A DNA stretch of 64,000 nucleotides, taken from NCBI GenBank assembly GCA_036574205.1, contig JAINCQ010000028.1, positions 32,001 through 96,000 of the forward strand, in the 5' to 3' direction. The notes beneath the pieces were generated by a model. The model saw only the letters and a program-made list of their open reading frames with translations. It made no database searches and had not been told where the DNA came from. Numbering within the stretch: position 1 is the first letter of the stretch; each line of letters begins with the position of its first letter. This document shows positions 10,138 to 61,524 of this stretch, piece by piece. Origin of the DNA: Elusimicrobiota bacterium (GTDB lineage: Bacteria; Elusimicrobiota; Elusimicrobia; Elusimicrobiales; UBA9959). The position numbers were made by a program, and so were the translations under genes.

Positions 10138-10347
10138 AGACACAACTTATCCCTGAAAGCTTTTCAGAAAATCCAGATGACAATACTTTTTAATTCGTGT
10201 TTCCTCTAAGTAATCTTATTTTTTTATATGGTGATAATATATAGGGCAGAAAAGAATAAAATTTAAATTCAAAATTGTTTCTATTATCCTTATTAATATT
10301 TTTAAAATGATATAATTTAATATGAATTGATTTTTTTGGAGGCGCTT

Positions 10348-23131: not shown

Positions 23132-23151
23132 AAACAAAGGAGGAAGATAAT

Positions 23152-24792
23152 ATGAAAGTAAAAGCGCCAAGAGGAAATAAAATAACTTGTAAAGGTTGGG
23201 AACAGGAAGCTGCTATGCGGATGCTTATGAACAATTTGGATTCCGAAGTAGCTGAAAAACCTGAGGAACTAATAGTTTATGGTGGAAGAGGAAAAGCTGC
23301 AAGAAATTGGGATGCTTTTAAAGCTATAATTAAAAGCTTAAAAGAATTAAATGATGATGAAACACTACTTGTTCAATCAGGAAAACCGGTTGGCATAGCT
23401 AAAACACATGAATATGCTCCAAGGGTTTTAATAGCAAATTCCAATTTAGTTGGTAATTGGGCTAAATGGGAAGTTTTTAATGATCTTGAAAAAAAAGGTC
23501 TTATAATGTATGGTCAGATGACTGCGGGCTCCTGGATTTACATAGGCACTCAGGGTATATTACAGGGAACTTATGAGACTTTTGCGGCATGTGCCAGAAA
23601 ACATTTTAAATCTGATTTAACTGGCAAGCTTGTTGTAAGTGGTGGGCTTGGTGGAATGGGAGGGGCTCAGCCTCTTGCAATTACAATGAATAATGGAGTT
23701 GGAATTATTATAGAGGTTGATCCTCAAAGGATTCAAAAAAGGCTTAAAACTGGATATTTAGATACAATGACTGAAAGTTTAGATGAAGCTCTTGAAATAG
23801 CAAACAGATACATAAAAGAGAAAAAACCTATTTCAATTGGTCTTTTGGGAAATTGCGCTGAAATACTCCCACAGATGCTTAAAATGGGAGTAAAGATAGA
23901 TGTTTTAACTGATCAAACTTCAGCGCATGACCCGTTAAATGGCTATATTCCAAAAGGTTTAAGTTTAGAAGAAGCTAAAAAGTTAAGAGAAAAAGATCCG
24001 GATAGCTATATAAAAAAATCAATGGAGTCTATGGCAATACATGTTGAAGCAATGCTTGGATTTTTGAAAAATGGAACGATTGTTTTTGACTATGGAAATA
24101 ATATAAGGACGATGGCTTATAATCAGGGTGTTAAAAATGCTTATGATTTTCCCGGTTTTGTGCCAGCTTATATAAGAGATTTATTTTGTGAAGGTAAAGG
24201 ACCATTTAGATGGGTAGCTTTAAGTGGGGATCCGAAAGACATATACTTTACGGATAAACTTGCAATGGAAACATTTCCCAAAAATGAGACTATGATTAGA
24301 TGGATTAAGATGGCTTCAAAAAAGGTTCATTTTCAGGGCCTTCCAGCAAGAATATGCTGGCTTGGTTATGGAGAAAGGCATATTTTAGGGCTTAAGTTTA
24401 ATGAGATGGTTAAAAAAGGTAAGATATCCGCTCCTATTGTAATTGGAAGGGATCATTTAGATAGCGGATCTGTTGCAAGCCCTTTTAGAGAGACAGAATC
24501 TATGAAAGATGGCTCAGATGCAATAGCAGATTGGCCTATTTTAAATGCTTTGCTTAATACCGCAAGTGGTGCAAGCTGGGTTAGCTTTCATCACGGCGGT
24601 GGGGTTGGGATAGGATATTCTTTACATGCCGGTCAGGTTATAGTTTGTGATGGAAGCAAGAAAATGAGAGATAGGATTGAAAGGGTTTTAACAAATGATC
24701 CTCTTATGGGAGTTTTAAGGCATTATGATGCAGGATATGAGATAGCCAAAAAATTTGCTCAAAAAAATAAGATAAAAATTCCAATGAGATAG
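23152..24792 (+). CDS. hutU: Urocanate hydratase
   Basis: [46 protein letters not shown]. Confidence 0.98.
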
Positions 24793-33360: not shown

Positions 33361-34047
33361 ATGAAATTTGAGGATTTGAAAAAATTATATTTGCAGAAGA
33401 AAGAGCAATTTGGGGCGGAAAGCTACAAATATATATCAGAAGTATTAAAGGAAGCAAAAGAAATTCATAAGAGAGATTGGTTAAAACATCCGACTCCAAT
33501 TGGAGATCATGAACAGAGTTGGAGAGCTTTTAAAGGGAAAAATTTAGAAAAGCTGATCCAATGTATTATTACAGATGAAGTCAAAAGACTTGGCTTGAAG
33601 TTGGTTAATGGTAATCAGCTAGAACGAGCTACAAATCTTTCCAAAGAGTTAAGTCAAGTAAAACGAAATTTGGCTGTTGATTATGGAGAGTTTGGATTGC
33701 ATTTGCCAGATGTTGATATTATTATTTATAATCCTCAAAACTATAAAGTTTTAATTTTAATTTCGAGCAAAGTAACTTTGCAAGAAAGAATTGCACAAAC
33801 TGCATACTGGAAACTAAAACTTTCTCATGATGAAGCAACAAAACACATAAAGGTTTATTTTATTACCCCTGATGAAGATGGGACGTTAACCTATAGAAAA
33901 CCGGCTAAAAAGGGCAGGGCAATTGTAGAAATAGATTTAGATGGCAGTTATGTTTTGACTGATGAAAAAATAGAAGAAAGTGATAAAGTTAAACTTTTCA
34001 AGTGCTTTATAGATGATTTGAAAAAGTTGTTGAAAAATGAGATCTAA
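33361..34047 (+). CDS. Type II restriction endonuclease, BsaWI/CCGG-family-like
   Basis: QSWRAFKGKNLE, LPDVD, SSKVTLQERIAQ; lies between two methyltransferases. Confidence 0.7.
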   Translation: MKFEDLKKLYLQKKEQFGAESYKYISEVLKEAKEIHKRDWLKHPTPIGDHEQSWRAFKGKNLEKLIQCIITDEVKRLGLKLVNGNQLERATNLSKELSQVKRNLAVDYGEFGLHLPDVDIIIYNPQNYKVLILISSKVTLQERIAQTAYWKLKLSHDEATKHIKVYFITPDEDGTLTYRKPAKKGRAIVEIDLDGSYVLTDEKIEESDKVKLFKCFIDDLKKLLKNEI

Positions 34048-34723
34048 AAAACCCAAATTTGAAACAACAACACTATGGGACTTCCCAACTCAAAATTATG
34101 GGGATACTCCCCATGGCAATAATAAATATCCTGGTGTAACACCAGCGTTTGTTATTTGGAATCTTATTCAAAGATATACAAAAGAAGGAGATCTTGTAGT
34201 TGATCCGATGTGTGGCAGCGGAACAACTATTGATGTTTGCAAGGAAGAAAAACGTAAGGTTTTAGGTTTTGATATAGTTCCTTATAGAGAAGATATAAAA
34301 CAAGAAGATGCAAGGAAATTACCATTAGGAAATGAAACTGCAGATTTTATTTTTATCGATCCTCCTTATTCAGATAACATAAAATATAATGATCACCCTG
34401 ATAATATTGGTAATATATCTTGTGAAAATCCAATATTTTTTGAAGAATTAGAAAAAGTAGTGAAGGAGATGTATCGTATTTTGAAGCCAGGAAAATATAT
34501 TGCATGGCTTGTCGGAGACCAGGCAAAAAAGAAAAGATTTGTGCCAGTAGGATTTAAATTATATTTTATTGTTGAAAGATACTTTAAACCTGTTGATATT
34601 ATTTGTGTAGCTAGACACAACCAAACTTCTAATACACCACTTTGGCATGAAAGGGCAAGAAAGTATAATTTTTATCTTCGTGGTTTTAAATATTTGATAG
34701 TGATGCAAAAGAGCAGTAAATAA
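34037..34723 (+). CDS. Amino (N4/N6) DNA methyltransferase
   Basis: VDPMCGSGTT and FIDPPY. Confidence 0.85.
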   Translation: MRSKKPKFETTTLWDFPTQNYGDTPHGNNKYPGVTPAFVIWNLIQRYTKEGDLVVDPMCGSGTTIDVCKEEKRKVLGFDIVPYREDIKQEDARKLPLGNETADFIFIDPPYSDNIKYNDHPDNIGNISCENPIFFEELEKVVKEMYRILKPGKYIAWLVGDQAKKKRFVPVGFKLYFIVERYFKPVDIICVARHNQTSNTPLWHERARKYNFYLRGFKYLIVMQKSSK

Positions 34724-44751: not shown

Positions 44752-45525
44752 TTATTTGAATTTTGAAAAGTATTTATCTATTTCTGGCCTCAACTCTATT
44801 CCTACTCTTTCAAAACAATTCAGTAACTCCAAATAAGCGCCTTCCCCTCCCAGAAAATCCCAAAATTCCTCTGCAACCTTGAGTTCATTATCTAAATCCA
44901 GCATTCCTTTTAGTGTCCATCTTTCATAAGGTTTTGGTTCGTATGGATTGTAAGGAATGGCAACATACTAATGAATATTCGCATCTGGATATTTTGATAA
45001 ATAGATTGCTATCCATTCCATTAATGTCCGCTTAAAATCTTTAAAATTGCTAATATTAGGTTTAGCTGTTTTTAAATCGAACAGATGTATGCTTCCATCT
45101 TTACTTTTAACAAACAAATCTACTTTAACTGTTCTTAATTTATTAATCTTAACCTTTACGCAAACTTTCCTTATCCTTTCAATTTCCTCTGTTTTGTTTG
45201 GAGTTCTACCTGTTGTTAGTTCGTTTATGATATGTTGAATTTCATTTTGAGCCTCTTCACTTATCGTATCACCTACCACAAATTGTTTTTGTGCAACAGG
45301 AAATCTTAAACCTGCCAATGTTTCAGCCACAGGTTCAAAAATGGAAATACCAAAAGTGGTGTTTAGAGAATGGATAAAAGAAAATAACGCCATCCTATCA
45401 CGACCAAGTAGGCGATAATGAAATGGCATATTACTGGTTTCTGGTTTATATGTTAAAAATTTATTCCTTAGACTTTCTCTAATAGTATTTTCAACTTTTT
45501 TTATTTGTTCTTTTGTAAGAGCCAT
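44752..45525 (-). pseudogene. TdeIII-family-like type II restriction endonuclease with an in-frame TAG at 44970..44968
   Basis: MPFHYRLLG, SLNTTFG..FE, VDL, DLKTAKPN; after TAG the frame continues YVAIPYNPYEPKPYERW...EEFWDFLGG to TAA 44752. Confidence 0.8.
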
Positions 45526-45528
45526 TTT

Positions 45529-47133
45529 TCATCTTTCCTTTAAATGAAATATTGATTCTGTGTAAGGAGTATTCCTATCTTTCTCCACTCTATTAAGGAC
45601 TGGCCTCTTGAATTGATTGACAATTTTCATCCCAGCCAATTCTGCAATCTTAGGATAAAGATGAAATTTATCATTAGCCACTAAAAAAATATCATAATCA
45701 TTTTGAAGATATTTCTTGCAATTTAGAAGAACCTCTGCTATGTTTCTACTATAAGAAATTCTTTGAGCTTCTCCCTGACCTTGGGATAGAGAGCCTATCT
45801 CTAAATCATCATTACGTTCAAATTCAAATATTTCATATGCATACGCATGTTGTTCGTGATAATCAATAAGTCCAACATAAGGTGGGCTTGAAAATATCCC
45901 TCTTATTTTTTGTCTTAATAACATTTCTGCAAACTCAGTGTCTCTTTTTTTAATTTCTTCGTAAATATTTATTGTCCTTGAGTCTCCGCATAAACAGACC
46001 TGAATTGTACCTGTTCTTAATTTATCAAATTCTTTAAGTCGATTTAGTGTATCTACTGTATAAAATTCCCACCATTTTGTGATAGAAAATATTGGTTTAC
46101 AAATTTTTCCATGCTTTTTGCAATAATATGGAGTAGTAACTGGTTCTTTTAGGGTAGCTAAATCTGCATGTGTCGTTGCTCTACAAGAGCGTACAGTTCT
46201 ACTTAAAACAATGGTTAAAACTTTCTTTACATCCATGTTATCTATCTTTTTTATTTCTTGTGCTAAGAAATCTATCTCTTTCCTTACAGGTTCTAAGAAC
46301 CACCTATCTAAAAAACTTTCATTTTTATCCTGTCTTATTTTGATATGATACCTTTGAATCAACTCATTATAAATAGTAAGAAACTCTTTTTCTTTCTCTT
46401 TGGAGTATTCATCTTCATTGATTGTTCTACTGGCAACTTTCCTTTTATATTCTGGCGATGGAAAATATTTAATGTTAAATTTTGCAAGTTCTGATAGTAA
46501 ATGTTCTTCAAAAATAATATTTTTTTTATTCTTCTGAAAGTCTTTTAATTTTGAAGTTAATTTGTGAATTGTGTCTGCAATTAAAATTAAATTATGCTTT
46601 TCAACTTTTACATTAGAAATTAAAACATTGAAAGAAGAAATATCTATTCCAATGGCATGCATTCCTAATTCGTTTGCCTGAACTAATGTTGTTCCACTTC
46701 CACAAAAAGGGTCTAATACTATATCACCTTTATGAAAGTATATCTCTTTCTTATACTCATCCGTGTGAGAATCAAGGAAATACTCTACTAATTGAGGAAT
46801 AAATTTACCCTTATAAAGATGTAACCTATGAACATGTTTTGTCCTTTCTGCTTCCTTATATTGGACAAATGAGATATGCCAATTAACATCTTCTCCTAAT
46901 ACCTTTTTCCAATCTTTTTCCCTAGAAAAAGAATCATAATAATTTTTTAATTCCTCTATATCTATGAGAGGATTCCCATCAGATCCATATCTTTTTATTC
47001 TTCCGTATTGAATTAGATAAGATATATTTGAAAGGGTAACTTTGCGACCTGTATATTGAGAAGCCAAAATACTTGCCTCTTTTAAATTAATCAATTTCTT
47101 ATCTTCTTCTCTAAAAGATGTAAATTGGTTCAT
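45529..47133 (-). CDS. N4-cytosine-type DNA methyltransferase with N-terminal HTH-like domain
   Basis: HVHRLHLYKGKFIPQ, LDPFCGSGTT, FSSPPY; adjacent to the endonuclease. Confidence 0.88.
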   Translation of the reverse strand: MNQFTSFREEDKKLINLKEASILASQYTGRKVTLSNISYLIQYGRIKRYGSDGNPLIDIEELKNYYDSFSREKDWKKVLGEDVNWHISFVQYKEAERTKHVHRLHLYKGKFIPQLVEYFLDSHTDEYKKEIYFHKGDIVLDPFCGSGTTLVQANELGMHAIGIDISSFNVLISNVKVEKHNLILIADTIHKLTSKLKDFQKNKKNIIFEEHLLSELAKFNIKYFPSPEYKRKVASRTINEDEYSKEKEKEFLTIYNELIQRYHIKIRQDKNESFLDRWFLEPVRKEIDFLAQEIKKIDNMDVKKVLTIVLSRTVRSCRATTHADLATLKEPVTTPYYCKKHGKICKPIFSITKWWEFYTVDTLNRLKEFDKLRTGTIQVCLCGDSRTINIYEEIKKRDTEFAEMLLRQKIRGIFSSPPYVGLIDYHEQHAYAYEIFEFERNDDLEIGSLSQGQGEAQRISYSRNIAEVLLNCKKYLQNDYDIFLVANDKFHLYPKIAELAGMKIVNQFKRPVLNRVEKDRNTPYTESIFHLKER

Positions 47134-47259: not shown

Positions 47260-47343
47260 ACCATTGATTTTGGGGTGATATCCAAAGCAGTTTAGATACT
47301 CCGAATGTAGCTAATCCCTTTAACTTGGAATATACTCTTTTCG

Positions 47344-47417
47344 TGGGCCCGGTAGGACTTGAACCTACGACCCATCCGTTATGAGCGGATTGCTCTGACC
47401 GACTGAGCTACGGGCCC
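47344..47417 (-). tRNA. tRNA with CAT anticodon, most likely tRNA-Ile2 (lysidine type)
   Basis: GGGCCCG/CGGGCCC acceptor, ATCCG CTCATAA CGGAT anticodon arm, GGTTCAAGTCC; paired 1:72 and no GGG/CCC anticodon stem, so not initiator. Confidence 0.9.
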
Positions 47418-47682: not shown

Positions 47683-48936
47683 TTAGAGTTTTTCAATAGA
47701 CCCTAAATAGTTTCTAAGATCCTTCCAGAAGGAGGAATAAGTTTTTGACACAGAATCTTTATCTTTTATTTTAATTTCTGGATTATTGATTATTTTAAGT
47801 AAGCCACCAATCATTGCAACTCTATGGTCTTTTTGTGGATCAAGGCTTTTGATTTTTTTAAAATCAGATGGTCCAATTATAGTTAACTTATTTTTGGTTC
47901 TTTTAACCCTAACTCCAAGTTTTTTAAGAATTAAAAATATATTTGAAAATCTGTCAGATTCTTTGTTTTTTAAAAGGTTTATATGGTGTATTTCGCTCTT
48001 CCCCTTAGCTTTTGCCATAATAAGGGCAAGTGGCATAATCTCATCTATCATAGTAGTTATATCTTCTTTTATAACTATTGGTTTTAAGTTTTTTGGTGGT
48101 TTTATATGTATATCTGCTATTGGTTCATTTGATATAACTTTTTTGTTTTTAAACAAAATCTTTGCCCCCATTTCAGATATTGCTTTTAAAAATCCAATTC
48201 TTTTAGGGTTAATACCACAGTTTTTAATAACTATTTCTTTTTTTAATAACAAAGCTATTGTAATAAAAACAGCAGCCTGTGATATATCCCCTGGAACTTC
48301 TATATTTTTCGGAGTTAATTTATTTTTGGTAATGTAAATACTTTTTCCGGCTTTATGTGTAGTTATTCCAAACACTTTTAAAATCCTTTCCGTATGGTCT
48401 CTTGTTAAAAAAGTTTCTTTTATTTTTATAGGACCGGAATATAATGATGCTATTAATAAAGCAGATTTTGTCTGAGCTGAACTGGTTTTAAAATTTAGGG
48501 GTTTTAAAATTGATGGATATGTTTGAATCGGTAACTTAAAATTATTATGTTTTATTTTAGCCCCCATTTTTTTAAAAATCAGTATATCCTGTTTAAAACT
48601 TCTTCTTAAAATAGTCTTTTGTCCATTTATTTTATAGGGAAATTTTTGATTTAAAAGAATTGGAAGCAAAAGTCTTAATAGAAGAGCAGATTCTCCAACG
48701 TTTATTTGAGCTTTTTTAGCACCATATTTGCCGAACCCTTTTATCTCAATAGATTTTGAGTTTATTTTTATTTTAGCTCCAAGTCTCCTGAGATTTTTTA
48801 TTGTATTTAATGAGTCCTCTGATATAAGCGGATTTAAAATTTTTATTTTTTTATCTGAAAGCGATGAAAGAACAAGATCTCTTATTGTTATTGATTTATC
48901 TGGAGGGGGGATGTATATTATTTTATTTTTCATCAT
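47683..48936 (-). CDS. aroA: EPSP synthase
   Basis: PPDKSIT, VGESA, SSAQTKS, TRDHTE, VPGDIS, KESDR, DHRVAM. Confidence 0.92.
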   Translation of the reverse strand: MMKNKIIYIPPPDKSITIRDLVLSSLSDKKIKILNPLISEDSLNTIKNLRRLGAKIKINSKSIEIKGFGKYGAKKAQINVGESALLLRLLLPILLNQKFPYKINGQKTILRRSFKQDILIFKKMGAKIKHNNFKLPIQTYPSILKPLNFKTSSAQTKSALLIASLYSGPIKIKETFLTRDHTERILKVFGITTHKAGKSIYITKNKLTPKNIEVPGDISQAAVFITIALLLKKEIVIKNCGINPKRIGFLKAISEMGAKILFKNKKVISNEPIADIHIKPPKNLKPIVIKEDITTMIDEIMPLALIMAKAKGKSEIHHINLLKNKESDRFSNIFLILKKLGVRVKRTKNKLTIIGPSDFKKIKSLDPQKDHRVAMIGGLLKIINNPEIKIKDKDSVSKTYSSFWKDLRNYLGSIEKL

Positions 48937-49372
48937 CCGTATTAATCTTCAAACAGAAATCTATTGCTTTTAAATAAGAGTTTATGCCTTCACCCAAAAA
49001 AGTTTTGATACAGACATCTTTTACGACGGATTTTCTTCTAAATTTTTCGCGTTTATTGATATCTGAAAGGTGAACCTCTATTGTTGGAATTCCGCATGCT
49101 TTTATGCAATCCCTTATAGCATAGCTATAATGGGTAAATGCCGCGGGGTTTATTATTATAAAATCCGCCCAGTTCATTTGTTTTGTTATTAAATCTATTA
49201 TCTCGCCTTCATAATTTGATTGATATATTTTTATCAAAACATTTTTAGACTTTGCATAACTTTTTAATTTTTTATTTACTTCTTTAAGCGAAAGCTTGCC
49301 ATATATTTCTGGTTCCCTTTTACCAAGGAGGTGGAGATTAGGACCGTGTATGATTAATATTTTTTTTCGCAT
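48923..49372 (-). CDS. aroQ: Type II 3-dehydroquinate dehydratase
   Basis: HGPNLHLLGKREPEIYG, QSNYEG, INPAAFTHYS, IEVHLS. Confidence 0.96.
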   Translation of the reverse strand: MRKKILIIHGPNLHLLGKREPEIYGKLSLKEVNKKLKSYAKSKNVLIKIYQSNYEGEIIDLITKQMNWADFIIINPAAFTHYSYAIRDCIKACGIPTIEVHLSDINKREKFRRKSVVKDVCIKTFLGEGINSYLKAIDFCLKINTDDEK

Positions 49373-50397
49373 AACTCCTCATATGTTTTTGATAATATTG
49401 AAGGATCAATGTTTATAGCAGGTTTAATTTTCTTTTTCTTTAATACAAGAAAATAATTATTAGATCCTTTATTTTTCTTATCATAAGTTATTAATTCAGA
49501 AAATCTTTTAAAGTCAGATTTTTTAAAAGGAAATGCTGGCTCATAGATTTTGAATATTTCGCTAAATTTCTCCTTTTTATAGTTTATAAGTCCTAAATTT
49601 TTTGATAAAAGTACTTCATATATAACACCATAATATACTGCATCGCCATGAGAAATGTCATATAACTTTTCAAAAGCATGAGCGGGAGTATGTCCGAAAT
49701 TTAGAATTTCTCGCTTTCCATTTGAATCAAAAGGGTCTTTCTGGACTATATCGGTTTTAAATTTGACACATAAATTTATGGAAGATTTAATTGCCTGTGG
49801 ATTTTTAGTTATTACTGATGGCAGAAGTTTTTTTAGTTTTTCTGATGTTTTTTGTGGGGTTATTAAGATGTATTTTACCATCTCGCCTATCCCGTTAAAA
49901 AAAGTTTTATTTTGTTTTAAGGGAAATTCCCAGTCTATGAGGACAAGCACCGGAAAATGAAAAGTGCCTAAAAGATTTTTAATTCCATTAAAATCTATTG
50001 CAGTTTTCCCGCCGATAGAGGCATCTATCTGTGAAAGAAATGTGGTTGGGACAGATATCCATCTGATTCCACGCATATAAAGCGAAGAGGCAAGGCCGAC
50101 TATATCTGAAACCTTCCCGCCGCCAAATGCAAGAACAATAGAGTTTCTTGTTAATTTATTTTTGGCAAAAAAATTTAAAATACTTGAAAGCTCAGAAAGA
50201 TTTTTGTTGCTAAGAGGTTGTAATTCAAAAACTGGATATGAGTTAATTTTTCTTTTTAAAAAAGGTTTTGCCATTGAATCTGCTACAATAACAAGTTTAT
50301 CGTAATCTAAATCTGATAGTTCTTTTTTCAAATTCAGGTTCTCTAAAATTTTTATAAAAGAGTGTGTTGTTCTCTTAATTTTTAGTTTAATTTCCAT
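49354..50397 (-). CDS. aroB: 3-dehydroquinate synthase
   Basis: FGGGKVSD, PTTFLSQIDASIGGKT, KNLLG, LNFGHT..H, SHGDAV. Confidence 0.93.
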   Translation of the reverse strand: MEIKLKIKRTTHSFIKILENLNLKKELSDLDYDKLVIVADSMAKPFLKRKINSYPVFELQPLSNKNLSELSSILNFFAKNKLTRNSIVLAFGGGKVSDIVGLASSLYMRGIRWISVPTTFLSQIDASIGGKTAIDFNGIKNLLGTFHFPVLVLIDWEFPLKQNKTFFNGIGEMVKYILITPQKTSEKLKKLLPSVITKNPQAIKSSINLCVKFKTDIVQKDPFDSNGKREILNFGHTPAHAFEKLYDISHGDAVYYGVIYEVLLSKNLGLINYKKEKFSEIFKIYEPAFPFKKSDFKRFSELITYDKKNKGSNNYFLVLKKKKIKPAINIDPSILSKTYEELCEKKY

Positions 50398-50905
50398 AAT
50401 ATGCGGCTTTTATTTTATTAGTTATTTCCCTCAATTTTATTTCTTTTATTGTGATAAGAGCTTTTGAGTATTTTTTTAATCTTTTCTTATAAAGCGTAAT
50501 TATCTTTTTTTTGGTTTCAGGATATCCTGTTAATAATGGGCGTGTGTTTTTGTTTTTTAAAAACCTTTTCTCAAGAATCTCAAATGGTGGATTTAAAAAG
50601 ATTTCAAGCGCTTGTGGTTTTTTTGTTGGGAAGAATCCTCCTCCCGTGGCTATAACACAGTTTTCCTCTTTCAGAATTTTTGAAAAAATTTTTTTCTCAA
50701 TCTTTCTAAAATTGGTGAATCCATATCTTTTAGTAAAATCTGATATTCTTCCATGTATTTTTTCAAACTCAGTATCAATGTCATAAAATTTAAGCCCTAA
50801 TTTTTTTGAAATAGATTTTGCCACTGTAGTTTTCCCTGAGCACATAAAACCGTATAATATTATCTTTTTATATTTTGAAGTTTTTTTAGTGTTTGTCTTT
50901 TCCAT
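50387..50905 (-). CDS. aroK: Shikimate kinase
   Basis: GFMCSGKTT, DID, FRKIE, IATGGG, TRPLL. Confidence 0.9.
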   Translation of the reverse strand: MEKTNTKKTSKYKKIILYGFMCSGKTTVAKSISKKLGLKFYDIDTEFEKIHGRISDFTKRYGFTNFRKIEKKIFSKILKEENCVIATGGGFFPTKKPQALEIFLNPPFEILEKRFLKNKNTRPLLTGYPETKKKIITLYKKRLKKYSKALITIKEIKLREITNKIKAAYYGN

Positions 50906-51879
50906 ATATTGAATGCTCTTTTTATTTCATTGAAATTTTCATTGCCAAATTTTAACATTATCTCATTTGCCAGTGTATATGAAACAACATGTTCACAGAT
51001 TATGGCAGCTGCAAAAACTGAGGTTATATCACTTGTTTGTGATGATAGTTTTAGTTTCTTTTTAGTTTTAAGGTCATAGCTAATTACTTCTTTTTTAATA
51101 GAAGCCAGAGGTCTTGTTGCGGCTCTTATGATAATATCGTTCCCATCAGTTATGCCAGCTTCAATTCCCCCCAGAACAGCCGGATGCTTTATAACCTCAG
51201 TAACTTCCTTCTGACTTAATTTAAACCCATCTCCAAACTCAATGCCTTTTATTGAGCCAATTGTTAAAATTGCTGATGCAAGTTTTGAAGAGATTCTATC
51301 TTCACCCTGTGAAAAACCGCCAACTCCAGCCGGAAAGTTTTTTACTCTTATTTCAAAAACACCGCCAAAACTCAAACCTCTTTCTTCAAAATTCTTTATT
51401 ATACTCTCAAATTTTTTATTATCATTTTCTCCATAACAGGATATAACCTTTGATTCTACTTTTATTCCAAGAAGTTCAATAAATCTTTTTGTAAAAGAGA
51501 ATATGGCAACTCTTGCCGCAGTTTCCCGCGCAGATGATCTTTCCTTTATTATTTCTGCGTTATAATGGGAATATTTAATCATACCCGCAAGTTCACTATG
51601 GGTGGGGGTGAAGTAAGAATGCGGTTGGATTTGAGAGGGATTTGAATTTTCAATTAAAATCCCTATAGGCATTCCGGTTGTTATCCCGTTTTTAACCCCG
51701 CTTATAATTTCAAATTTGTCTGTTTCAGATTTCTGTCTTATTCCCCTTCCAGGACATTCTCTCCTTCTTTTAAGTTCATTGGCTATATACTGAGGGGTTA
51801 TCCTTACACCATAAGGAAAACCATCAAGGATTGCAACAAGAAATTTTCCATGAGAATCTCCTGCTGTTAGATACTTCAT
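50860..51879 (-). CDS. aroC: Chorismate synthase (divergent)
   Basis: TAGDSHG, ERSSARETAARVA, SIKGIEFGDGF, GGIEAGITDG. Confidence 0.9.
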   Translation of the reverse strand: MKYLTAGDSHGKFLVAILDGFPYGVRITPQYIANELKRRRECPGRGIRQKSETDKFEIISGVKNGITTGMPIGILIENSNPSQIQPHSYFTPTHSELAGMIKYSHYNAEIIKERSSARETAARVAIFSFTKRFIELLGIKVESKVISCYGENDNKKFESIIKNFEERGLSFGGVFEIRVKNFPAGVGGFSQGEDRISSKLASAILTIGSIKGIEFGDGFKLSQKEVTEVIKHPAVLGGIEAGITDGNDIIIRAATRPLASIKKEVISYDLKTKKKLKLSSQTSDITSVFAAAIICEHVVSYTLANEIMLKFGNENFNEIKRAFNIWKRQTLKKLQNIKR

Positions 51880-52667
51880 AAATTCCTCTTTAAATATTTT
51901 ATAAGTTTTCTATTTATATTTGAAACTAAAATTCCTGTGATAAATTTAAATCCCTCAATTGCTTGTTGGACTAAAATTTCAATGCCGTCTATATAATTTA
52001 TTTTTTTCTTTTTTGCTTCACAAATTATATTGGTATCATTTTTATCATAAGCCCAGTCTACTAAAAGAGATAAGTTTTTAAAGTTTATATTGAGAGTATC
52101 ATTTGAATACATCCCTATTGGTGTCGCATTTATAAATATATCATATTCTTTTTCGCATTTATTGAATCCAAAAACCTCAAACTTAAACTTCTTGCCAAAT
52201 TTTTTACACATAGCCTTTGCTTTTTTTTCATTTCTTGCTGATATAAAAATTTTTTTTACGCCCATTTCACCAAGCGCTTTAATTGATGCTCTTGCAGATC
52301 CTCCACAGCCTGCTATAAGAGCTGTCTTGCCTTTAATCTTGTATCGGCTGATTAGTTTTTTGAAAGCAAGATAGTCAGTATTTATCCCGAAAGCTTTTGA
52401 ATCCCTTATCTTTACACAGTTTATAGCGCCAATTTTTTTAGATAACGGTTTAATAGATGGGTGTTTAAATAGCTGTTCTTTAAATGGTATAGTTATAAAA
52501 AATCCATCATATCCATTTCCAATTATCTCATTAACTAATTCTTGACAATTTTTAGTCTCAAAAAGGGTAAATTTTAATTTAATTTTTTTCTCTCTTGCAA
52601 TATATTCAAATATTTTTTTAGAAAGTGATTTTGAAAGTGGATATCCCAGCAGTCCCAGTTTTATCAT
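51876..52667 (-). CDS. aroE: Shikimate dehydrogenase
   Basis: GYPLSKSLS, TIPFK, GAINC, NTD, GCGGSA, INATPIGM, DGIEILVQQA. Confidence 0.9.
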   Translation of the reverse strand: MIKLGLLGYPLSKSLSKKIFEYIAREKKIKLKFTLFETKNCQELVNEIIGNGYDGFFITIPFKEQLFKHPSIKPLSKKIGAINCVKIRDSKAFGINTDYLAFKKLISRYKIKGKTALIAGCGGSARASIKALGEMGVKKIFISARNEKKAKAMCKKFGKKFKFEVFGFNKCEKEYDIFINATPIGMYSNDTLNINFKNLSLLVDWAYDKNDTNIICEAKKKKINYIDGIEILVQQAIEGFKFITGILVSNINRKLIKYLKRNL

Positions 52668-53608
52668 CTGATTATATTCATTACCTTTTTAAATGTTTCT
52701 ATATCTATTATCTGTTTTGTGTCTATTAGCGATTTTTCCGGGGTTATGCTTGTTTCAACCATAACTCCATCAGATATTCCTGCCGTTTTAGCTGCAAAGT
52801 TTATAACTTTTTTCCTGTCTTTTGCGCTATGGCTTAAATCGGCGATTATTGGTATTTTCAACTCTTTTTTTATTCTTTTTATTATCTCTAAATTTATTGA
52901 TGCAATCCCATCTGAAAGATTATCTCCCCTTTCACATAAAATTATTTTCTTTGCGCCATATTTTAAAATATATTCAGCGGAATATAAAAATTCTCTTAAA
53001 TTAGATTTTGGCTGCCTTTTTAAAAGAACCGGTAAACCTGAAGCTGCTGCTTCTTTTAAAAGCACATAGTTTTTCATATTTCTTGCGCCTATCTGGATTA
53101 TATCGCATACTCCTGTTAATTTATCAATAACTCTATAATCCATAACTTCCATCACAAATGGGACTTTTAATTTTTTTCTTGCCTCTTTTAATTTTGAAAT
53201 TCCTTTTTTACCAAACCCTTCCCATCCATAGGGTGAGCTCCTTGGCTTAAACAAAGGCGCCCTTATAGCGTCAACTCCAAGTTTTTTAAGTTCAAAGCCA
53301 GTTTTAATGAAGATATCCCAGTCATCTATAACACATGGCCCTGCTATAATAATTTTTTTTAGCGGGTTTATCGGATACTTAAAACGATATTTATATGAAT
53401 AGACAAGTGGAAGCAGTTCATGGTTTTTAGCTTCTATTTTTTTAACTCCCTTTATATTTTCAAGTCTTGGGAAAATATTATAAACATATCCTGCTTTAAA
53501 GTTTTTCACTAAAAATTCACGGTTTTTATGTATTAAAATTAATTTGGGATCTATTTTTTTAATTTCCTCTGCTATCTTTTTCGGATTCCCATAAAATGTT
53601 ATTCTCAT
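52664..53608 (-). CDS. aroF: DAHP synthase, class I-beta
   Basis: IAGPC, FKPRSSPY, QIGARNM, VLLKR, LCERG, DLSH. Confidence 0.88.
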   Translation of the reverse strand: MRITFYGNPKKIAEEIKKIDPKLILIHKNREFLVKNFKAGYVYNIFPRLENIKGVKKIEAKNHELLPLVYSYKYRFKYPINPLKKIIIAGPCVIDDWDIFIKTGFELKKLGVDAIRAPLFKPRSSPYGWEGFGKKGISKLKEARKKLKVPFVMEVMDYRVIDKLTGVCDIIQIGARNMKNYVLLKEAAASGLPVLLKRQPKSNLREFLYSAEYILKYGAKKIILCERGDNLSDGIASINLEIIKRIKKELKIPIIADLSHSAKDRKKVINFAAKTAGISDGVMVETSITPEKSLIDTKQIIDIETFKKVMNIIR

Positions 53609-53862
53609 TTTTGTAACTCTCTGGATTTTTTTATTATAACTGAAAAAATCTGTGAGATTTCATTTTTATATTTCCCTGCGTTTTTTTTAACATTTGTCAT
53701 AACTTTTTTTTCTCTTGCTTTATCTGTTATTTTTAAACCAATTTTTTTCTTTACATCTCCTATCCTGGAAGATAAGTTAAATCTTTTTTTCAAAAGTTTT
53801 ACCAGTTTGATATCTATTAAATCTATTTTCATTCTTAAATCTTTTATTTTATGTTTTACCAT
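53605..53862 (-). CDS. Monofunctional chorismate mutase (AroQ class)
   Basis: LRMKIDLID..LVKLLKKR...IGDVK......D.ARE...SRELQ. Confidence 0.88.
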   Translation of the reverse strand: MVKHKIKDLRMKIDLIDIKLVKLLKKRFNLSSRIGDVKKKIGLKITDKAREKKVMTNVKKNAGKYKNEISQIFSVIIKKSRELQK

Positions 53863-54529
53863 AGTTTAAAACAAGTCTTTTTATGTGCGGAGAATTTATA
53901 ATTTTATTAATTCTAAAATAAGAGTTTTCTTTTAAATAAATAATTTCTCCGCTTTTTTCCTCTTCTAATTTTATAACATTTTTATCAATACAGCTATATT
54001 TACAGTTTCCTATTTTATACTCATATGGGCAAAACCTTGTCATTGCAAGATACTCAAATGGATAATAGTATGATAAAGGTATTTTTGAGTCTTTTAATTT
54101 TTTAACGATAAATTCTTCATCTGTTTCTACATATTTTATTCGATATTTTTTTATGAAATTTGAGAGAAAATTTATGTCCATCCTTAGATAATCATGCGAA
54201 ATCGGCCTTGACAAAAGGACTTCAACCATAAATTCCCTTCTTCTTATTTCGTTTATAAATCCTATATCAGTGGCTGAGACCTCAACCTGAATTTTTGATT
54301 TTGTTAGTTTATTTAAGAGTAATATTGCTTTTTTTACATTGTTGTCATTCATAAGAGAGGTTGCAATAGTTAAATTTTTAATTCCATTTTCGTAAAGAAA
54401 TTTTATGTGTTTAAAATCTGGAATAAGGTTAGCGCAAAAATTAGAGCCAGTATAGACTCTATCAAATTTTTTTAAGTATTTTATATTAAGATTATCAAAA
54501 GGATTTATTAAAATTGCTTTTTCTAACAT
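53849..54529 (-). CDS. U32-family protein, UbiV-like
   Basis: DRVYTGSNFC, DIG, LAMTRFC-x8-C-x3-C: one N-terminal plus three C-terminal Cys. Confidence 0.6.
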   Translation of the reverse strand: MLEKAILINPFDNLNIKYLKKFDRVYTGSNFCANLIPDFKHIKFLYENGIKNLTIATSLMNDNNVKKAILLLNKLTKSKIQVEVSATDIGFINEIRRREFMVEVLLSRPISHDYLRMDINFLSNFIKKYRIKYVETDEEFIVKKLKDSKIPLSYYYPFEYLAMTRFCPYEYKIGNCKYSCIDKNVIKLEEEKSGEIIYLKENSYFRINKIINSPHIKRLVLNYGKT

Positions 54530-55362
54530 ATAAACCTGTATTTTAAAGAGAGTTTTTTGTAAATTTTATCATAGTCATTGACTGCTTTTAGCGCCTGGGA
54601 TAAAAATTCATCTTCAGTTTTGGCTTTTTCCGCAATAGCTGAGATAAGCTTTGCTTCGGAAAATATTAGTTGTGTAAGATTAAACAGAGGGGATCTGCCT
54701 ATTTTAACTATATTTACCCCAAGTTTATAAAACCTGTAAAATTGTCTTAATCTTTCCCTTGTAGAATATGTTGTCATTCTAAATATTTTCCCATCGTTTA
54801 AATAGGTTTTAAGACAAGCTGTTGAATCTTCTCCATGGCAGTTTAAAAAACATATCCCGTTAAACATCTTACAAGTTTCTCTATGTTTTATAAACATTTC
54901 AGTTTCTATTTGTTTTATTATATTTTTTGCTTCTTCCGGGGTTATTTGTTCACATAGCGCTATTCTTTTAATGCCGTAATTTTTGAAAAACTTAAGTGAA
55001 TATGAATTGAGGCATAGGCTAAGCGTTGAAAGAATTGTAAAAAGTTTTAATTTTCTTTTTTTCAACTCCTCAAAAATTGCTATATCTTTGATTATAAAAC
55101 CGTCAACCCCAGCCTCAGCTAGTTCTTCTATGGCTTTTATTGCTTCCCAGATTATTTCCCCCTGAACTTCGTTTGCCACATAAAAAAGTTTTTTCCTGCC
55201 CAATAATTTCTTTGCTTCTATAAAATCTTTTTGTTTTGAAAAGTTTGGCGCTTTTTCCACATGAGATGGTATATACGAAAGTCCGCAGTAAAATTCATCA
55301 GCGCCAAGTTTAAGGAATTTTTCTATTTCCTTTAAAGTTCCGGCTCCAACCTGGATAATCAT
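54523..55362 (-). CDS. U32-family Fe-S protein, UbiU/TrhP/RlhA-like
   Basis: GADEFYCG, GVDGFIIKD, ILST....N, GIKRIAL, ETEMF..C-x6-C-x3-C-x7-C, GVNIVKIGR. Confidence 0.8.
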   Translation of the reverse strand: MIIQVGAGTLKEIEKFLKLGADEFYCGLSYIPSHVEKAPNFSKQKDFIEAKKLLGRKKLFYVANEVQGEIIWEAIKAIEELAEAGVDGFIIKDIAIFEELKKRKLKLFTILSTLSLCLNSYSLKFFKNYGIKRIALCEQITPEEAKNIIKQIETEMFIKHRETCKMFNGICFLNCHGEDSTACLKTYLNDGKIFRMTTYSTRERLRQFYRFYKLGVNIVKIGRSPLFNLTQLIFSEAKLISAIAEKAKTEDEFLSQALKAVNDYDKIYKKLSLKYRFIC

Positions 55363-60164: not shown

Positions 60165-60231
60165 TCTTTGTTGCGTCTTAACATAAAAAGGAAATTCGGA
60201 CCTCTGCAATGCACGTCACGGATTATCCTTT
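60165..60231 (+). ncRNA. Putative tracrRNA (ends approximate)
   Basis: Anti-repeat TCTTTGTTGCGTC-TT-AAC complementary to repeat 5' GTT-TT-GACGCAACAAAGA, followed by long hairpin AAAGGA...TCCTTT. Confidence 0.75.
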
Positions 60232-60586
60232 ACCAGAATTGAAGTTGCTCATAGCTATTCGGGTTGTTTGCTATATTTCGTTTACTATCTTTTATTTTAT
60301 CTGAAATAGTTACCATCTGTCCCCATTGATTATCTGTTATAAAAAGACATTTTATACTTCCAGTATTTGGATTTATTTTTTTTAAATGAGATAAAAAACT
60401 TTCTTTTTTATCCAGTGTAACAGCAGCCCTTACATACACAGAGTATTGAAGCATCAGATAACCGGCATCTAATAAATCATTTCTAAATTTGGTGGCAAGT
60501 CTTCTTTCTTCTGCTGTATCTGTTGGTAAATCAAACATAACAAAAAGCCAGCCCATTCTATATTCACTCCTTTTATTTTTCTTCAT
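60230..60586 (-). CDS. cas2: CRISPR-associated endonuclease Cas2
   Basis: YRMGWLFVMFDLP, FRNDLL..GY.MLQYSVY, ITDNQW. Confidence 0.95.
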   Translation of the reverse strand: MKKNKRSEYRMGWLFVMFDLPTDTAEERRLATKFRNDLLDAGYLMLQYSVYVRAAVTLDKKESFLSHLKKINPNTGSIKCLFITDNQWGQMVTISDKIKDSKRNIANNPNSYEQLQFW

Positions 60587-61478
60587 AAATATGATCTATT
60601 TTAGGAATGTATAAAGCGCCGGGAAAAGCAGAATAAAAACAGTCTGCGACTGAAGATACATATCTATCTATTATCTTTGGCATTTTTAGTTTTTTACCAT
60701 TATATTTAAAAAGTAATGATGTAAATTTTTCAGCCACTACTTTAATAAATTCCCTTATATCTTTTTTAGGATTGTTTTTCTTAAATTCAAATAAAATTAA
60801 ATCACAAAATGGTCTTAGTGGCTCCATTAAATCATATAACAAAGGCTCTGATTTAAATCTATATTTATGATGAATTCCAAGTAATGGATTAAGCCCATGC
60901 GCTATTATTTCTCTATGGCAAAAAGCTCCCATAACAGCATAGGCATAATTCAGCATTTGATTGACTGGATGTTCTGCACCTTTCTTTTCTCTTTCTTTTG
61001 GTTTTTTATGCCCAAATTTAGAAAAATATTTTTTCCAGTAATGTCTTGCGCAATTTCCTTCATCTATATTATTGCTTTTTAAAATCTCATAAAGATTGTG
61101 AGTCACATTTAATTTATCTAAAACTTTTGCTTGATTTTCAATTTTTGCTTTTATTATTTTTTGCCATAAAGAGGAAGAAAATTTTTCATCTTTTTGTATT
61201 TGTTTTTCAAAAATTTGTGAATGGACTATGCCTGAAAATCCAGAAGTCTTTCCTATTGGTCGATAATTTTCATCGCAATGAATGATTACTGCTTTATTAT
61301 TGATTAAATGATTTAAACTTTCACCGGAAAAGGAAATACCTCTTGCAGCTACAATAACTGCTAAAATATCATTTAATGGTGCTCTTTTTTCTCCTTCTTC
61401 GCTTTTTAATACTAAAAATCCTCTATCTACTGAAAGATAACTATTATGGGTTAAGATATGTATTATATGATACGACAT
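60573..61478 (-). CDS. cas1: CRISPR-associated integrase Cas1 (type II)
   Basis: LWQKIIKAKIENQ, EG..ARHYW, NQMLNYAYAV, GIHH, YDLMEPLRP. Confidence 0.95.
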   Translation of the reverse strand: MSYHIIHILTHNSYLSVDRGFLVLKSEEGEKRAPLNDILAVIVAARGISFSGESLNHLINNKAVIIHCDENYRPIGKTSGFSGIVHSQIFEKQIQKDEKFSSSLWQKIIKAKIENQAKVLDKLNVTHNLYEILKSNNIDEGNCARHYWKKYFSKFGHKKPKEREKKGAEHPVNQMLNYAYAVMGAFCHREIIAHGLNPLLGIHHKYRFKSEPLLYDLMEPLRPFCDLILFEFKKNNPKKDIREFIKVVAEKFTSLLFKYNGKKLKMPKIIDRYVSSVADCFYSAFPGALYIPKIDHIYEEK

Positions 61479-61524
61479 TACTTATTTTGTAATGTCTTAT
61501 TTTATCAAAAATATTAAATTTTTT

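Follow-up and report, generated by a model that had tools for sequence, protein, structure and literature searches.

UbiU-UbiV (YhbU/YhbV in E. coli) is an O2-independent, prephenate-dependent ubiquinone hydroxylase of the U32 family. Two further members, TrhP and RlhA, are prephenate-dependent hydroxylation factors for tRNA U34 and 23S rRNA C2501, respectively (PMC5727448, PMC10990095). The dependence of RlhA, TrhP and UbiU/UbiV on prephenate, which the original prediction took as its background, agrees with the published work (PMC5727448, PMC6599085, PMC10990095). U32 substrates known so far include RNA (PMC5727448, PMC10990095), and DUF3656 is described as unique to RlhA (PMC5727448). In the proposed U32 mechanism prephenate is converted to phenylpyruvate, which is released; according to the same paper, no U32 protein has yielded a biochemical result in vitro (PMC10990095). 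HXS (HxsA/B/C/D) is an antiphage system of four genes, none of them a U32, with 99.7% of cases in Pseudomonadota (Li et al., Nat Commun 2026, PMC13128918). For an island of group VI nitrogenase-like (NFL) and radical-SAM genes, synthesis of a cofactor has been proposed (bioRxiv 10.1101/765248). Our literature search found no paper describing a coupling of U32 to chorismate mutase, and none describing U32 pairs in Hxs-like clusters.

Here we describe a U32 gene pair that heads a shikimate operon in an Elusimicrobiales MAG (95.3% complete). Our results suggest, with a probability of about one half, that the pair is a prephenate-dependent hydroxylase of an Hxs peptide pathway, for which the aro genes and chorismate mutase (CM) are kept as a supply line.

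A ten-gene operon from U32a to AroA

The stretch of DNA analysed (the window) is 64,000 nucleotides long, and its positions 47683-55362 are filled by ten overlapping minus-strand ORFs encoding U32a, U32b, a chorismate mutase and seven shikimate enzymes. Pfam and NCBIfam matches give the order U32a, U32b, CM_2, DAHP synthase, AroE, AroC, AroK, AroB, AroQ and AroA. All nine junctions overlap, by 7, 14, 4, 4, 4, 46, 11, 19 and 14 nt as measured with the longest ORFs, in line with the gene order and overlaps originally predicted. The genes are as follows.

54523..55362, minus strand: U32a, catalytic-type U32 subunit, 279 aa (PF01136 63.3 bits, cut-off 22.4)
53849..54529, minus strand: U32b, U32-fold partner subunit, 226 aa (no Pfam or NCBIfam match; assigned by fold and Cys pattern)
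53605..53862, minus strand: chorismate mutase, monofunctional, AroQ-class, 85 aa, makes prephenate (PF01817 67.9 bits, cut-off 27)
52664..53608, minus strand: DAHP synthase (type I-beta-like), 314 aa (PF00793 163 bits, residues 85-310)
51876..52667, minus strand: AroE, shikimate dehydrogenase (PF08501 and PF01488; TIGR00507 155 bits)
50860..51879, minus strand: AroC, chorismate synthase (PF01264 248.7 bits; TIGR00033 245.8 bits, exceeding the cut-off of 212.2)
50387..50905, minus strand: AroK, shikimate kinase (PF01202 98.7 bits)
49354..50397, minus strand: AroB, 3-dehydroquinate synthase (PF01761 and PF24621; TIGR01357 237 bits)
48923..49372, minus strand: AroQ, type II 3-dehydroquinate dehydratase (PF01220 182 bits; NF003805 182.6 bits, exceeding the cut-off of 146)
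47683..48936, minus strand: AroA, EPSP synthase, the last gene of the operon (PF00275 243 bits; TIGR01356 285.1 bits against a cut-off of 287.25)

Each of the eight Pfam families exceeds its gathering threshold, and the shikimate pathway is complete up to prephenate. The DAHP synthase has an N-terminal stretch of about 84 aa outside its PF00793 match and scores 219.6 bits against NF006421, under the cut-off of 335. Family annotation of the window genes gave neither PDT nor PDH, and no gene of the trp, pab or men type; within the window the pathway stops at prephenate, as had been claimed. A tRNA-Met (CAU) adjoins the operon. Aminotransferases of class I/II also occur (window 2926-4089).

The U32 pair compared with UbiU-UbiV, TrhP and RlhA

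U32a matches PF01136 only over profile positions 4-107 of 233 and shares 24% identity with E. coli UbiU (E 1e-9). For U32b, which matches nothing in Pfam or NCBIfam, the AlphaFold (AF2) model (pLDDT 92.6) has the U32 protein Mk0906 (5d88) as its top Foldseek match in the PDB (E 8.7e-5, TM 0.56/0.52), followed by generic TIM barrels. BLASTP gives it no significant similarity to UbiV, and hhalign places C32 on UbiV C39 at E 0.01 with a probability of only 4%. Calling U32b a U32 protein is justified by modelled structure and Cys pattern only.

In alignments of 23 sequences, C171 and C183 of U32a are invariant and C117 and C164 are conserved in at least 90%; close orthologs additionally have C26 and C175. 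The resulting spacing, C-x46-C-x6-C-x11-C, matches neither CX6CX15CX3/4C nor that of UbiU (PMC6747719). C164 and C171 correspond in the alignment to C169 and C176 of UbiU, whereas UbiU C232 has no counterpart in U32a, whose fourth Fe-S ligand is uncertain. U32b has the pattern C32...C167-x8-C176-x3-C180, and its far-upstream cysteine and C-x8-C-x3-C segment resemble the CXnCX12CX3C of UbiV (PMC6747719). C32, C167 and C180 are invariant in the 23 sequences, while C176 falls in the same column in 20 of them and a cysteine stands one column earlier in the other three. The alignments bear out the four candidate Fe-S cysteines with non-canonical spacing noted earlier in each protein, putative ligands of a 4Fe-4S cluster.

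U32b lies directly after U32a at all 20 of 20 loci. The predicted complex of the two scored 0.91 in three runs (best of three controls, 0.01), a score reached by 116 of 157 solved complexes and by 2 of 215 mismatched pairs; in the model the partner pLDDT is 91 and at least 99% of contacts agree. U32a and U32b are predicted to form a heterodimer, like UbiU-UbiV.

The architecture is also that of UbiU-UbiV, with two adjacent U32 genes, one larger and Pfam-positive and one smaller and divergent. To this extent the original labels "UbiU-like" and "UbiV-like" are apt, but they do not hold as statements of orthology. U32a reaches 42.9 bits against both the UbiU equivalog NF047963 (cut-off 440) and the TrhP equivalog NF011996 (cut-off 534). 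The RlhA signature DUF3656 is absent, and neither U32a nor U32b has a second Pfam domain. In the tree, all 31 short U32a proteins of Elusimicrobia branch apart from E. coli UbiU, TrhP and RlhA. With failed cut-offs, no DUF3656 and a separate branch, orthology to UbiU, TrhP or RlhA was rejected. Unlike UbiU-UbiV, the pair has no UbiT among its annotated neighbours, and the genes that accompany it are those of radical-SAM peptide maturases and of the aro operon. A search for UbiA-type prenyltransferases, MenD, MqnA and MenF-type enzymes revealed no ubiquinone pathway and only one MenA-like gene; with this MenA-like prenyltransferase present, the organism may have some quinone chemistry.

With TrhP and RlhA the pair shares the U32 family and the presumed chemistry, and the genetic dependence of the E. 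coli factors on the shikimate pathway and CM (PMC5727448, PMC10990095) has its counterpart here in a physical linkage. The pair could be a split short RNA hydroxylase (ho5U34 in tRNA or ho5C2501 in 23S rRNA) fed by aro and CM, on the model of TrhP, the B. subtilis TrhP1/TrhP2 pair or RlhA. RNA is among the known U32 substrates (PMC5727448, PMC10990095), and fusion to a housekeeping operon suits a housekeeping role. The short pairs are moreover the only U32s in this genome and in the small-genome genera g1, g9, g5 and g125, because long RlhA/TrhP-type U32s are absent there. However, U32a and U32b are far shorter than TrhP and RlhA, lack their C-terminal domains and fall in a separate clade, the TrhP cut-off is not reached, and DUF3656 is missing. 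Most larger genomes of the same family (f1) carry a 600-660 aa RlhA-like U32 in addition to their short pairs. CmoA, CmoB and TrhO are absent from the genome, the adjoining tRNA is a tRNA-Met, and the orthologs are mostly embedded among Hxs genes. An RNA substrate is thus unlikely.

Hxs radical-SAM clusters as the home of the pair

The operon had been viewed as a self-contained module. This view did not survive comparison with relatives: orthologs, cluster synteny and the tree place the pair in an Hxs cluster. The orthologous pair lies inside expanded His-Xaa-Ser (Hxs) radical-SAM clusters, with HxsB/HxsC-type genes flanking it at 13 of 18 ortholog loci (2 partial, 3 none); the ortholog loci of G357 and G254 have no Hxs genes nearby. 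A genome of the same genus (G286) has the order HxsB3-U32a-U32b-HxsC4b, and in the genome studied here (G000) HxsB3 and HxsC4b overlap by 32 nt, leaving the slot of the pair empty. The Hxs cluster of this genome is on another contig (C31), outside the window. It unites HxsB (510 and 461 bits, cut-off 370), HxsC-like and HxsD-like proteins, which stay under their cut-offs (best 169 against 268, and 41 against 50), and the His-Xaa-Ser repeat protein HxsA4 (77 bits, cut-off 55; repeat peptide read directly), and so qualifies as an Hxs cluster. The U32a clade of G000 and G060 (100/100) is nested in the Hxs-embedded clade (97/95). HxsB is found in every genome with a listed short U32, and the six genomes without HxsB have a long U32 only or no U32.

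The pair is a displaced member of the expanded radical-SAM maturation cluster, of HxsA4 type, that this Elusimicrobia family carries. Its membership narrows the target, which the original prediction had left open among RNA, lipid, peptide and metabolite. Since Hxs clusters also occur without U32 (G210, G172), the U32 step is at most accessory.

The ancestral neighbourhood of the pair resembles the HXS antiphage system in having HxsB, HxsC-like and HxsD-like proteins and an HxsA4 repeat protein. Unlike canonical HXS, it comprises 3 HxsB, about 8 HxsC-like radical SAMs and 2-3 U32 pairs, together with B12-radical SAM, PP-loop ATPase, TP_methylase-like and sometimes nitrogenase-like genes. The (HGS)n tail of HxsA4 has HSRGGWC at its end, and, unlike in canonical HXS, a peptidoglycan-binding domain was not seen in the protein.

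NflH-D/K, TP_methylase-like genes and a B12-radical SAM share one island with the Hxs cluster, and a truncated U32 directly follows NflK. In lineage, and in combining NflH/D/K with many radical-SAM genes, the island is like the group VI nitrogenase-like loci that Meheust et al. (2020) described from groundwater Elusimicrobia. The main text of that paper does not speak of U32, shikimate, prephenate or peptidase, and its accessible part does not name the radical SAMs as Hxs-type. Hydroxylation of a tetrapyrrole-like or quinone-like cofactor from this island, instead of a peptide, would be in line with the hypothesis of Meheust et al. (bioRxiv 10.1101/765248), with the MenA-like gene and with the U32 matches that adjoin NFL genes in G178 and G114. 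We consider it improbable: no more than 21 of the 61 family genomes have NFL genes, which are absent from G060 and G286 although both have the pair, and the conserved neighbours of the pair are HxsB/HxsC-type peptide maturases and the HxsA4 precursor. Dph5/Dph6-like enzymes with histidine as their substrate would account for the TP_methylase-like and PP-loop genes just as well.

Proposed prephenate supply and role of the pair

The genome has one set of aro genes, with each of the eight families in single copy, and the CM_2 match of the operon is its only one. No PDT, PDH_N, Chorismate_bind (TrpE/PabB/MenF-type), MqnA, MenD, CmoA, CmoB or TrhO was found in this 95.3% complete assembly. The same pattern holds across the 61 genomes of family f1, all of them MAGs and, as relatives, non-independent samples: AroC is present in 55, CM_2 in 56 and U32 in 57, against none for PDT, 3 for PDH_N and 4 for Chorismate_bind; the models of these last three match in 14 of 14 control genomes. 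In a separate control, PDT was positive in 82 of 151 Elusimicrobiota (f1 0/7, f2 0/45). U32 and CM occur together in 54 of the f1 genomes, U32 only in 3, CM only in 2 and neither in 2. The sister family f2 has none of AroC (0/59), CM, PDT, PDH or chorismate-binding enzymes and almost no U32 (2/118, both weak). G210 (98% complete) retains three HxsB genes and has no U32, AroC or CM. These data support the earlier claim that aro and CM are dedicated to prephenate, although a long RlhA-like U32 alone could be the reason why the family retained them.

Linkage of U32 to aro recurs beyond this genome, but in a limited set: only 6 genomes of 3 genera have it, and 14 of the 20 top loci, that of the same-genus G286 included, do not. 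The co-directional ten-gene operon is found in G000 and G060. In two other genera (G315, G226, G325, G402) the CM-aro operon stands back-to-back with the pair and the Hxs cluster. The two arrangements fall in separate U32a clades.

A CM-headed aro operon occurs throughout the family, in most cases without linkage to the pair, as expected if this were an ordinary aromatic amino acid operon in which enzymes not yet recognised, or the U32 reaction itself, complete Phe and Tyr, with the placing of the U32 genes incidental or a case of moonlighting. The aminotransferases and the release of phenylpyruvate from prephenate in the proposed U32 mechanism (PMC10990095) fit this reading. Against it are the near absence of PDT, PDH_N and Chorismate_bind from the family, the joint loss of aro and U32 in f2 and of U32, AroC and CM in G210, the origin of the linkage in two arrangements, and the lack of a route to Tyr or Trp. 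It has little chance of being correct.

We then propose a model for the pair as a hydroxylase of the Hxs pathway. The operon would couple a two-subunit U32 iron-sulfur enzyme to the full route from central metabolism to prephenate. Since every known chorismate- or prephenate-consuming branch appears to be lost in the organism, the shikimate pathway and CM are most likely kept for prephenate as oxygen donor to U32; the CM/aro linkage would fit prephenate use by U32a-U32b. The most likely target of the enzyme is a ring in the HxsA4 repeat protein, or in a product of the Hxs cluster, which it would hydroxylate; the His imidazole, a conserved Tyr/Phe and the C-terminal Trp are candidates. Counting against this model, the modification in canonical HXS adds 8 Da rather than 16 (PMC13128918). 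It is tempting to speculate, more tentatively and at odds clearly below even, that U32a-U32b acts on a protein or peptide, as the first U32 hydroxylase to do so, placing prephenate oxygen on an HxsA4 ring, and that the eight-enzyme pathway serves solely as its supply. If so, HxsA4, which is made on the ribosome, would receive oxygen from prephenate on a His, Tyr/Phe or Trp ring during radical-SAM maturation, and the shikimate-prephenate pathway would survive in an auxotrophic lineage only for an oxygen donor.

The U32-aro operon and its paired proteins

Ten minus-strand open reading frames fill the interval 47683-55362, and all nine junctions overlap, by 7, 14, 4, 4, 4, 46, 11, 19 and 14 nt when the longest frames are taken. 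Pfam and NCBIfam models give the gene order U32a, U32b, chorismate mutase (CM), DAHP synthase, AroE, AroC, AroK, AroB, type II AroQ and AroA, which bears out the overlapping ten-gene U32-aro operon of the original prediction. A divergent response regulator gene lies about 30-40 nt upstream. A consensus scan of the operon for promoters and terminators stayed at the level of shuffled sequence (45 vs 42.9 and 6 vs 4.8).

Features of the operon region
U32a, 279 aa: PF01136 at 63.3 bits (cut-off 22.4), covering only profile positions 4-107 of 233
U32b, 226 aa: no family match in Pfam or NCBIfam
Chorismate mutase, 85 aa: AroQ class
52664-53608, minus strand: DAHP synthase, whose residues 1-84 (~84 aa) form an N-terminal extension without family match
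47343-47417: tRNA-Met (CAU), 3' of the operon, the sole Rfam match

N-terminal extensions of type I-beta DAHP synthases are regulatory domains.

U32a aligns with E. coli UbiU at 24% identity across residues 7-176 (E 1e-9), and its C164 and C171 fall opposite the UbiU cysteine pair, C169 and C176 of UbiU being described as cluster ligands (Pelosi et al. 2019, PMC6747719). Across 23 U32a-type sequences, C171 and C183 never vary, conservation of C117 and C164 is at least 90%, and C26 and C175 are invariant among the nine closest orthologs only. Membership in the UbiU and TrhP families was ruled out for both proteins by score (42.9 bits vs equivalog cut-offs of 440 and 534, respectively), and RlhA was ruled out because neither U32a nor U32b contains DUF3656. 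All 31 short U32a sequences from Elusimicrobia separate from E. coli UbiU, TrhP and RlhA in a 35-row tree. That the pair hydroxylates RNA, as the tRNA factor TrhP and the rRNA factor RlhA do, appears improbable to us.

BLASTP found no significant similarity between U32b and UbiV. Searching PDB sequences with a profile of U32b returned chance-level neurolysin matches only, so that a fold search was needed to place the protein. The best solved-structure match of its AlphaFold model (pLDDT 92.6, pTM 0.90) is the U32 protein Mk0906 (5d88; E 8.7e-5, TM 0.56/0.52). The conserved cysteines of U32b, C32...C167-x8-C176-x3-C180, resemble the CXnCX12CX3C pattern of UbiV with x8 in place of X12, and profile alignment, although weak (E 0.01, probability 4%), sets C32 opposite UbiV C39. 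The fold match, cysteine pattern and weak profile alignment place U32b within the U32 family.

U32a is followed by U32b at each of the 20 best ortholog loci in the phylum. Complex prediction scored 0.91 in three runs, with a best control of 0.01; 116 of 157 solved complexes attain this mark, as do 2 of 215 mismatched pairs. The partner had a pLDDT of 91, and contact agreement was at least 99%. The predicted complex thus supports binding of U32a to U32b.

An exhaustive profile search of cluster representatives matched U32b to 1,852 clusters at E <=1e-3, 1,191 at 1e-10 and 139 at 1e-30. Two of ten clusters looked up carried names, Omnitrophota and Nanoarchaeota. Thus, the partner family is large, unmodelled in Pfam and extends beyond Elusimicrobiota. 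Word-indexed protein searches returned Elusimicrobia proteins only, labelled 'hypothetical' or 'U32 family', and a contig scan with a narrower alignment (A3) gave 13 loci, all in Elusimicrobia. In the 489-aa protein P0147 of a Nanoarchaeota (DPANN) archaeon, a U32b-like domain lies C-terminal to a class I SAM methyltransferase; this architecture shows that the partner family reaches archaea and can fuse with other modifying enzymes.

Retention of the prephenate pathway in family f1

The source genome (G000; 1.85 Mb, 43 contigs, 95.3% complete), assigned to Elusimicrobiales from the names of its homologs, was searched for pheA, tyrA, trp and a second aro set, and the outcome agreed with the dedicated pathway that had been proposed. 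It has one aro set, and prephenate dehydratase (PDT), prephenate dehydrogenase (PDH_N), Chorismate_bind (TrpE/PabB/MenF type), MqnA/D, MenD, CmoA (above cut-off), CmoB and TrhO were not found in it with Pfam models that match control genomes. Next to hutI on contig C6 (25929-29645, L082) lie genes for a polyprenyl diphosphate synthase and for a MenA-like prenyltransferase (152 bits, cut-off 277), both under curated cut-offs. Menaquinone synthesis was considered as a chorismate sink and rejected, as the MenA-like gene is there but the MenF-type, MenD and MqnA/D genes are not found. No chorismate route to the substrate of the MenA-like enzyme was found in the genome, which may use scavenged DHNA or another aromatic acceptor. 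Further histidine utilisation genes lie in the window at 10327-11820 and 21599-24792 (formiminotransferase-cyclodeaminase, histidine ammonia-lyase and urocanase); taken together with the hutI of C6, they fit an amino-acid-fermenting, amino-acid-scavenging lifestyle.

The pattern extends across f1, the Elusimicrobia family of the source genome.

Genomes with a match among the 61 of family f1
AroC: 55
CM_2: 56
U32: 57
PDT: 0
PDH_N: 3
Chorismate_bind: 4

In nearly all f1 genomes listing both, CM_2 and aroC share a contig, with the CM_2 match some 2 kb upstream, so CM probably heads the aro operon. PDT occurs in 82 of 151 genomes of the phylum (for example 36/44 in family f16, 10/11 in f19 and 7/7 in f25), and in the same survey in 0/7 genomes of f1 and 0/45 of the sister family f2. 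That this is an ordinary aro operon whose terminal enzymes escaped recognition therefore has to be set against models that do detect PDT in relatives, and we regard it as unlikely. In f2, AroC was found in 0 of 59 genomes and U32 in 2 of 118, each time as a weak match.

Of the 61 f1 genomes, 54 have both U32 and CM; three have U32 only (81, 84 and 90% complete), two CM only (97 and 60% complete) and two neither. Since these genomes are related, the counts serve as description, not as a statistical test. G210 (98% complete), one of the two with neither, has three HxsB genes and lacks U32, AroC and CM matches altogether, as though the hydroxylase and the pathway presumed to supply it had been lost together in nature. 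The larger f1 genomes mostly encode one full-length U32 of RlhA-like size as well (600-660 aa frame, 225-253 bits; for example G413:C42:22560-23237 and G254:C9:50889-51566). This long protein alone could explain the retention of aro and CM in f1; the genera g1 (that of the source genome), g9, g5 and g125 have short U32 pairs only, without the 600-660 aa U32.

The pair in expanded His-Xaa-Ser clusters

The search for U32-aro linkage elsewhere upheld the predicted association in part. Aro genes flank the pair at 4 of the best 20 ortholog loci (P0001) in the phylum. G060, of the same genus as the source genome, has the identical ten-gene operon. In G315, G226 and G325 (genus g9), the pair and a CM-aro operon stand back-to-back, separated by about 80 nt, and G402 (g125) shares this divergent arrangement. 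Same-genus G286 lacks aro linkage. At other loci, the pair lies among radical-SAM genes. The aro operon of g9 thereby adjoins the pair together with the entire block of Hxs genes downstream, those of the His-Xaa-Ser radical-SAM system. In the U32a tree, the G000 and G060 clade (100/100) is nested (97/95) within Hxs-embedded orthologs and the aro-linked copies of g9 and G402 belong to the other sub-clade; aro linkage thus arose at least twice.

By NCBIfam, the radical-SAM island on contig C31 of the source genome is an expanded Hxs system.

Hxs components on C31
HxsB: 510 and 461 bits (cut-off 370); third copy 316 bits
HxsC/HxsC4-like: ~8 enzymes, best 169 bits, below the cut-off of 268
HxsD-like: 41 bits (cut-off 50)
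HxsA4 repeat protein, ...HTSHTSHGSH...(GSH)n...SRGGWC: 77 bits (cut-off 55)

With the island proteins as tblastn probes, gene order was compared across 28 loci, giving the conserved order ...HxsB3-HxsCx2-unk401-rSAM-U32a2-U32b2-(rSAM)-U32a-U32b-HxsC4b-HxsB2-HxsC1-(unk401)-HxsC4a-PapB-like-HxsCx1-rSAM-NifS. Eighteen ortholog loci of L034-L052 were analysed, L007 and L049 being omitted as too short. HxsB/HxsC-type genes flank the ortholog at 13 of the 18, only partial neighbours are present at two (L040, L044), and no Hxs genes lie beside it at three (L034, the G060 aro operon; L043; L051). G286 has the order HxsB3-U32a-U32b-HxsC4b; in the source genome, the pair is missing from this slot and HxsB3 overlaps HxsC4b by 32 nt, and a second pair, U32a2-U32b2, is kept at C31:128155-129863 beside two radical SAMs. 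HxsB occurs in 55 of 61 f1 genomes and 0 of 14 controls. Every f1 genome with a listed short U32 also has HxsB, and the six without HxsB have one long U32 or none.

At about 91.3-117 kb of C31 (L053-L056), outside the window, an 825-aa frame joins an NflH-like and an NflD-like part, followed by an NflK-like gene, a U32 truncated to 135 aa, some 12 radical-SAM genes (three HxsB, ~8 HxsC-like, one PapB-like, one B12-binding), and HxsD-like and HxsA4 genes. Meheust et al. reported this island as a 'group VI nitrogenase paralog plus radical SAM' locus, and it is now recognisable as an expanded Hxs system. The available text of Meheust et al. 2020 (bioRxiv 10.1101/765248) describes such loci in this Elusimicrobia lineage and proposes a tetrapyrrole cofactor; its main text does not mention U32, peptidase, shikimate or prephenate. 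Group VI is still listed as function-unknown in a 2026 review (PMC13474568). The pair might accordingly hydroxylate a cofactor of the group VI nitrogenase-like (NFL) island; we give this little credence. NFL genes occur in 21 of 61 f1 genomes and in neither G060 nor G286, which rules out strict association and ties the pair to Hxs rather than NFL.

The His-repeat peptide cluster further encodes two members of the TP_methylase family along with a PP-loop ATPase resembling Dph6.

L054:3512-4171, L053:16186-16632 and L054:15626-16330, all minus strand, C31: the two TP_methylase-family proteins and the ATPase

The ATPase scores 65.8 bits with TIGR03679, which is below cut-off, and has matches to PF01902 and to PDB 3rjz (E 1.7e-8); TPm1 had no matches among PDB sequences. 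The diphthine synthase Dph5 is a TP_methylase-family enzyme too. These genes may indicate diphthamide-like histidine chemistry, not tetrapyrrole methylation.

A candidate peptide substrate and its significance

We then propose an aro-fed U32 hydroxylase whose likely target is the Hxs pathway, a reading to which we assign about even odds (roughly 0.5). Supply of the hydroxylase by the aro genes, as first predicted, is well supported genomically; the module proves not to be self-contained, and the likely target narrows to the Hxs pathway. By analogy with the account of UbiU-UbiV in PMC6747719, U32a and U32b would each bind one 4Fe-4S cluster. Following the scheme outlined in PMC10990095, a two-electron oxidation of the substrate ring would come first; prephenate would then decarboxylate and aromatise, giving up hydroxide so that phenylpyruvate remains. 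As candidate substrate we put forward HxsA4 or a product made by its cluster.

HxsA4 orthologs
L055:429-752, minus strand: HxsA4 (P0015)
L036, L038, L070 and L075: HxsA4 orthologs

All five share a leader with a hydrophobic stretch, an 'HSN-Y/L/I-F/T/V' segment, an (HGS)n tail, 9-14 H-x-S repeats and an invariant C-terminal HSRGGWC. HxsA4 thereby offers His, Tyr/Phe and Trp rings as candidate target sites.

As presented in PMC10990095, the evidence for prephenate-dependent hydroxylation by U32 proteins is genetic only, without an in vitro assay. The genomes studied here, in which the prephenate pathway is kept, its other known uses are lost and hydroxylase genes are joined to it, provide independent natural evidence for this chemistry, and the compact 10-gene cassette suits reconstitution. 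The Hxs link proposes a defined, ribosomally encoded candidate, HxsA4, which as substrate would add peptides to the RNA and quinone targets of U32 chemistry. In the full-text literature covered (U32/prephenate hydroxylation, His-Xaa-Ser, radical SAM and RiPPs), no Hxs or RiPP cluster with a pair of U32 genes is described, nor is a shikimate pathway retained for prephenate only. According to the available text of Li et al. 2026 (PMC13128918), in which U32 and hydroxylation go unmentioned, canonical HXS, a system of four genes, acts in antiphage defence and its effector HxsA carries a +8 Da modification, with 99.7% of systems in Pseudomonadota. The Elusimicrobia 'nitrogenase paralog plus radical SAM' islands can thus be reread, at least partly, as peptide-maturation systems with an E. 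coli relative in antiphage defence.

Three further loci were noted in the window.

33361-34723: restriction-modification pair of a BsaWI-like endonuclease and an N6/N4 methylase
44968-47133, just downstream of the aro operon: second restriction-modification pair, a TdeIII-like endonuclease and a 534-aa methylase
60230-63999: type II CRISPR-Cas (Cas2, Cas1 and a Cas9-like protein carrying HNH and RuvC_III domains), extending past the window end
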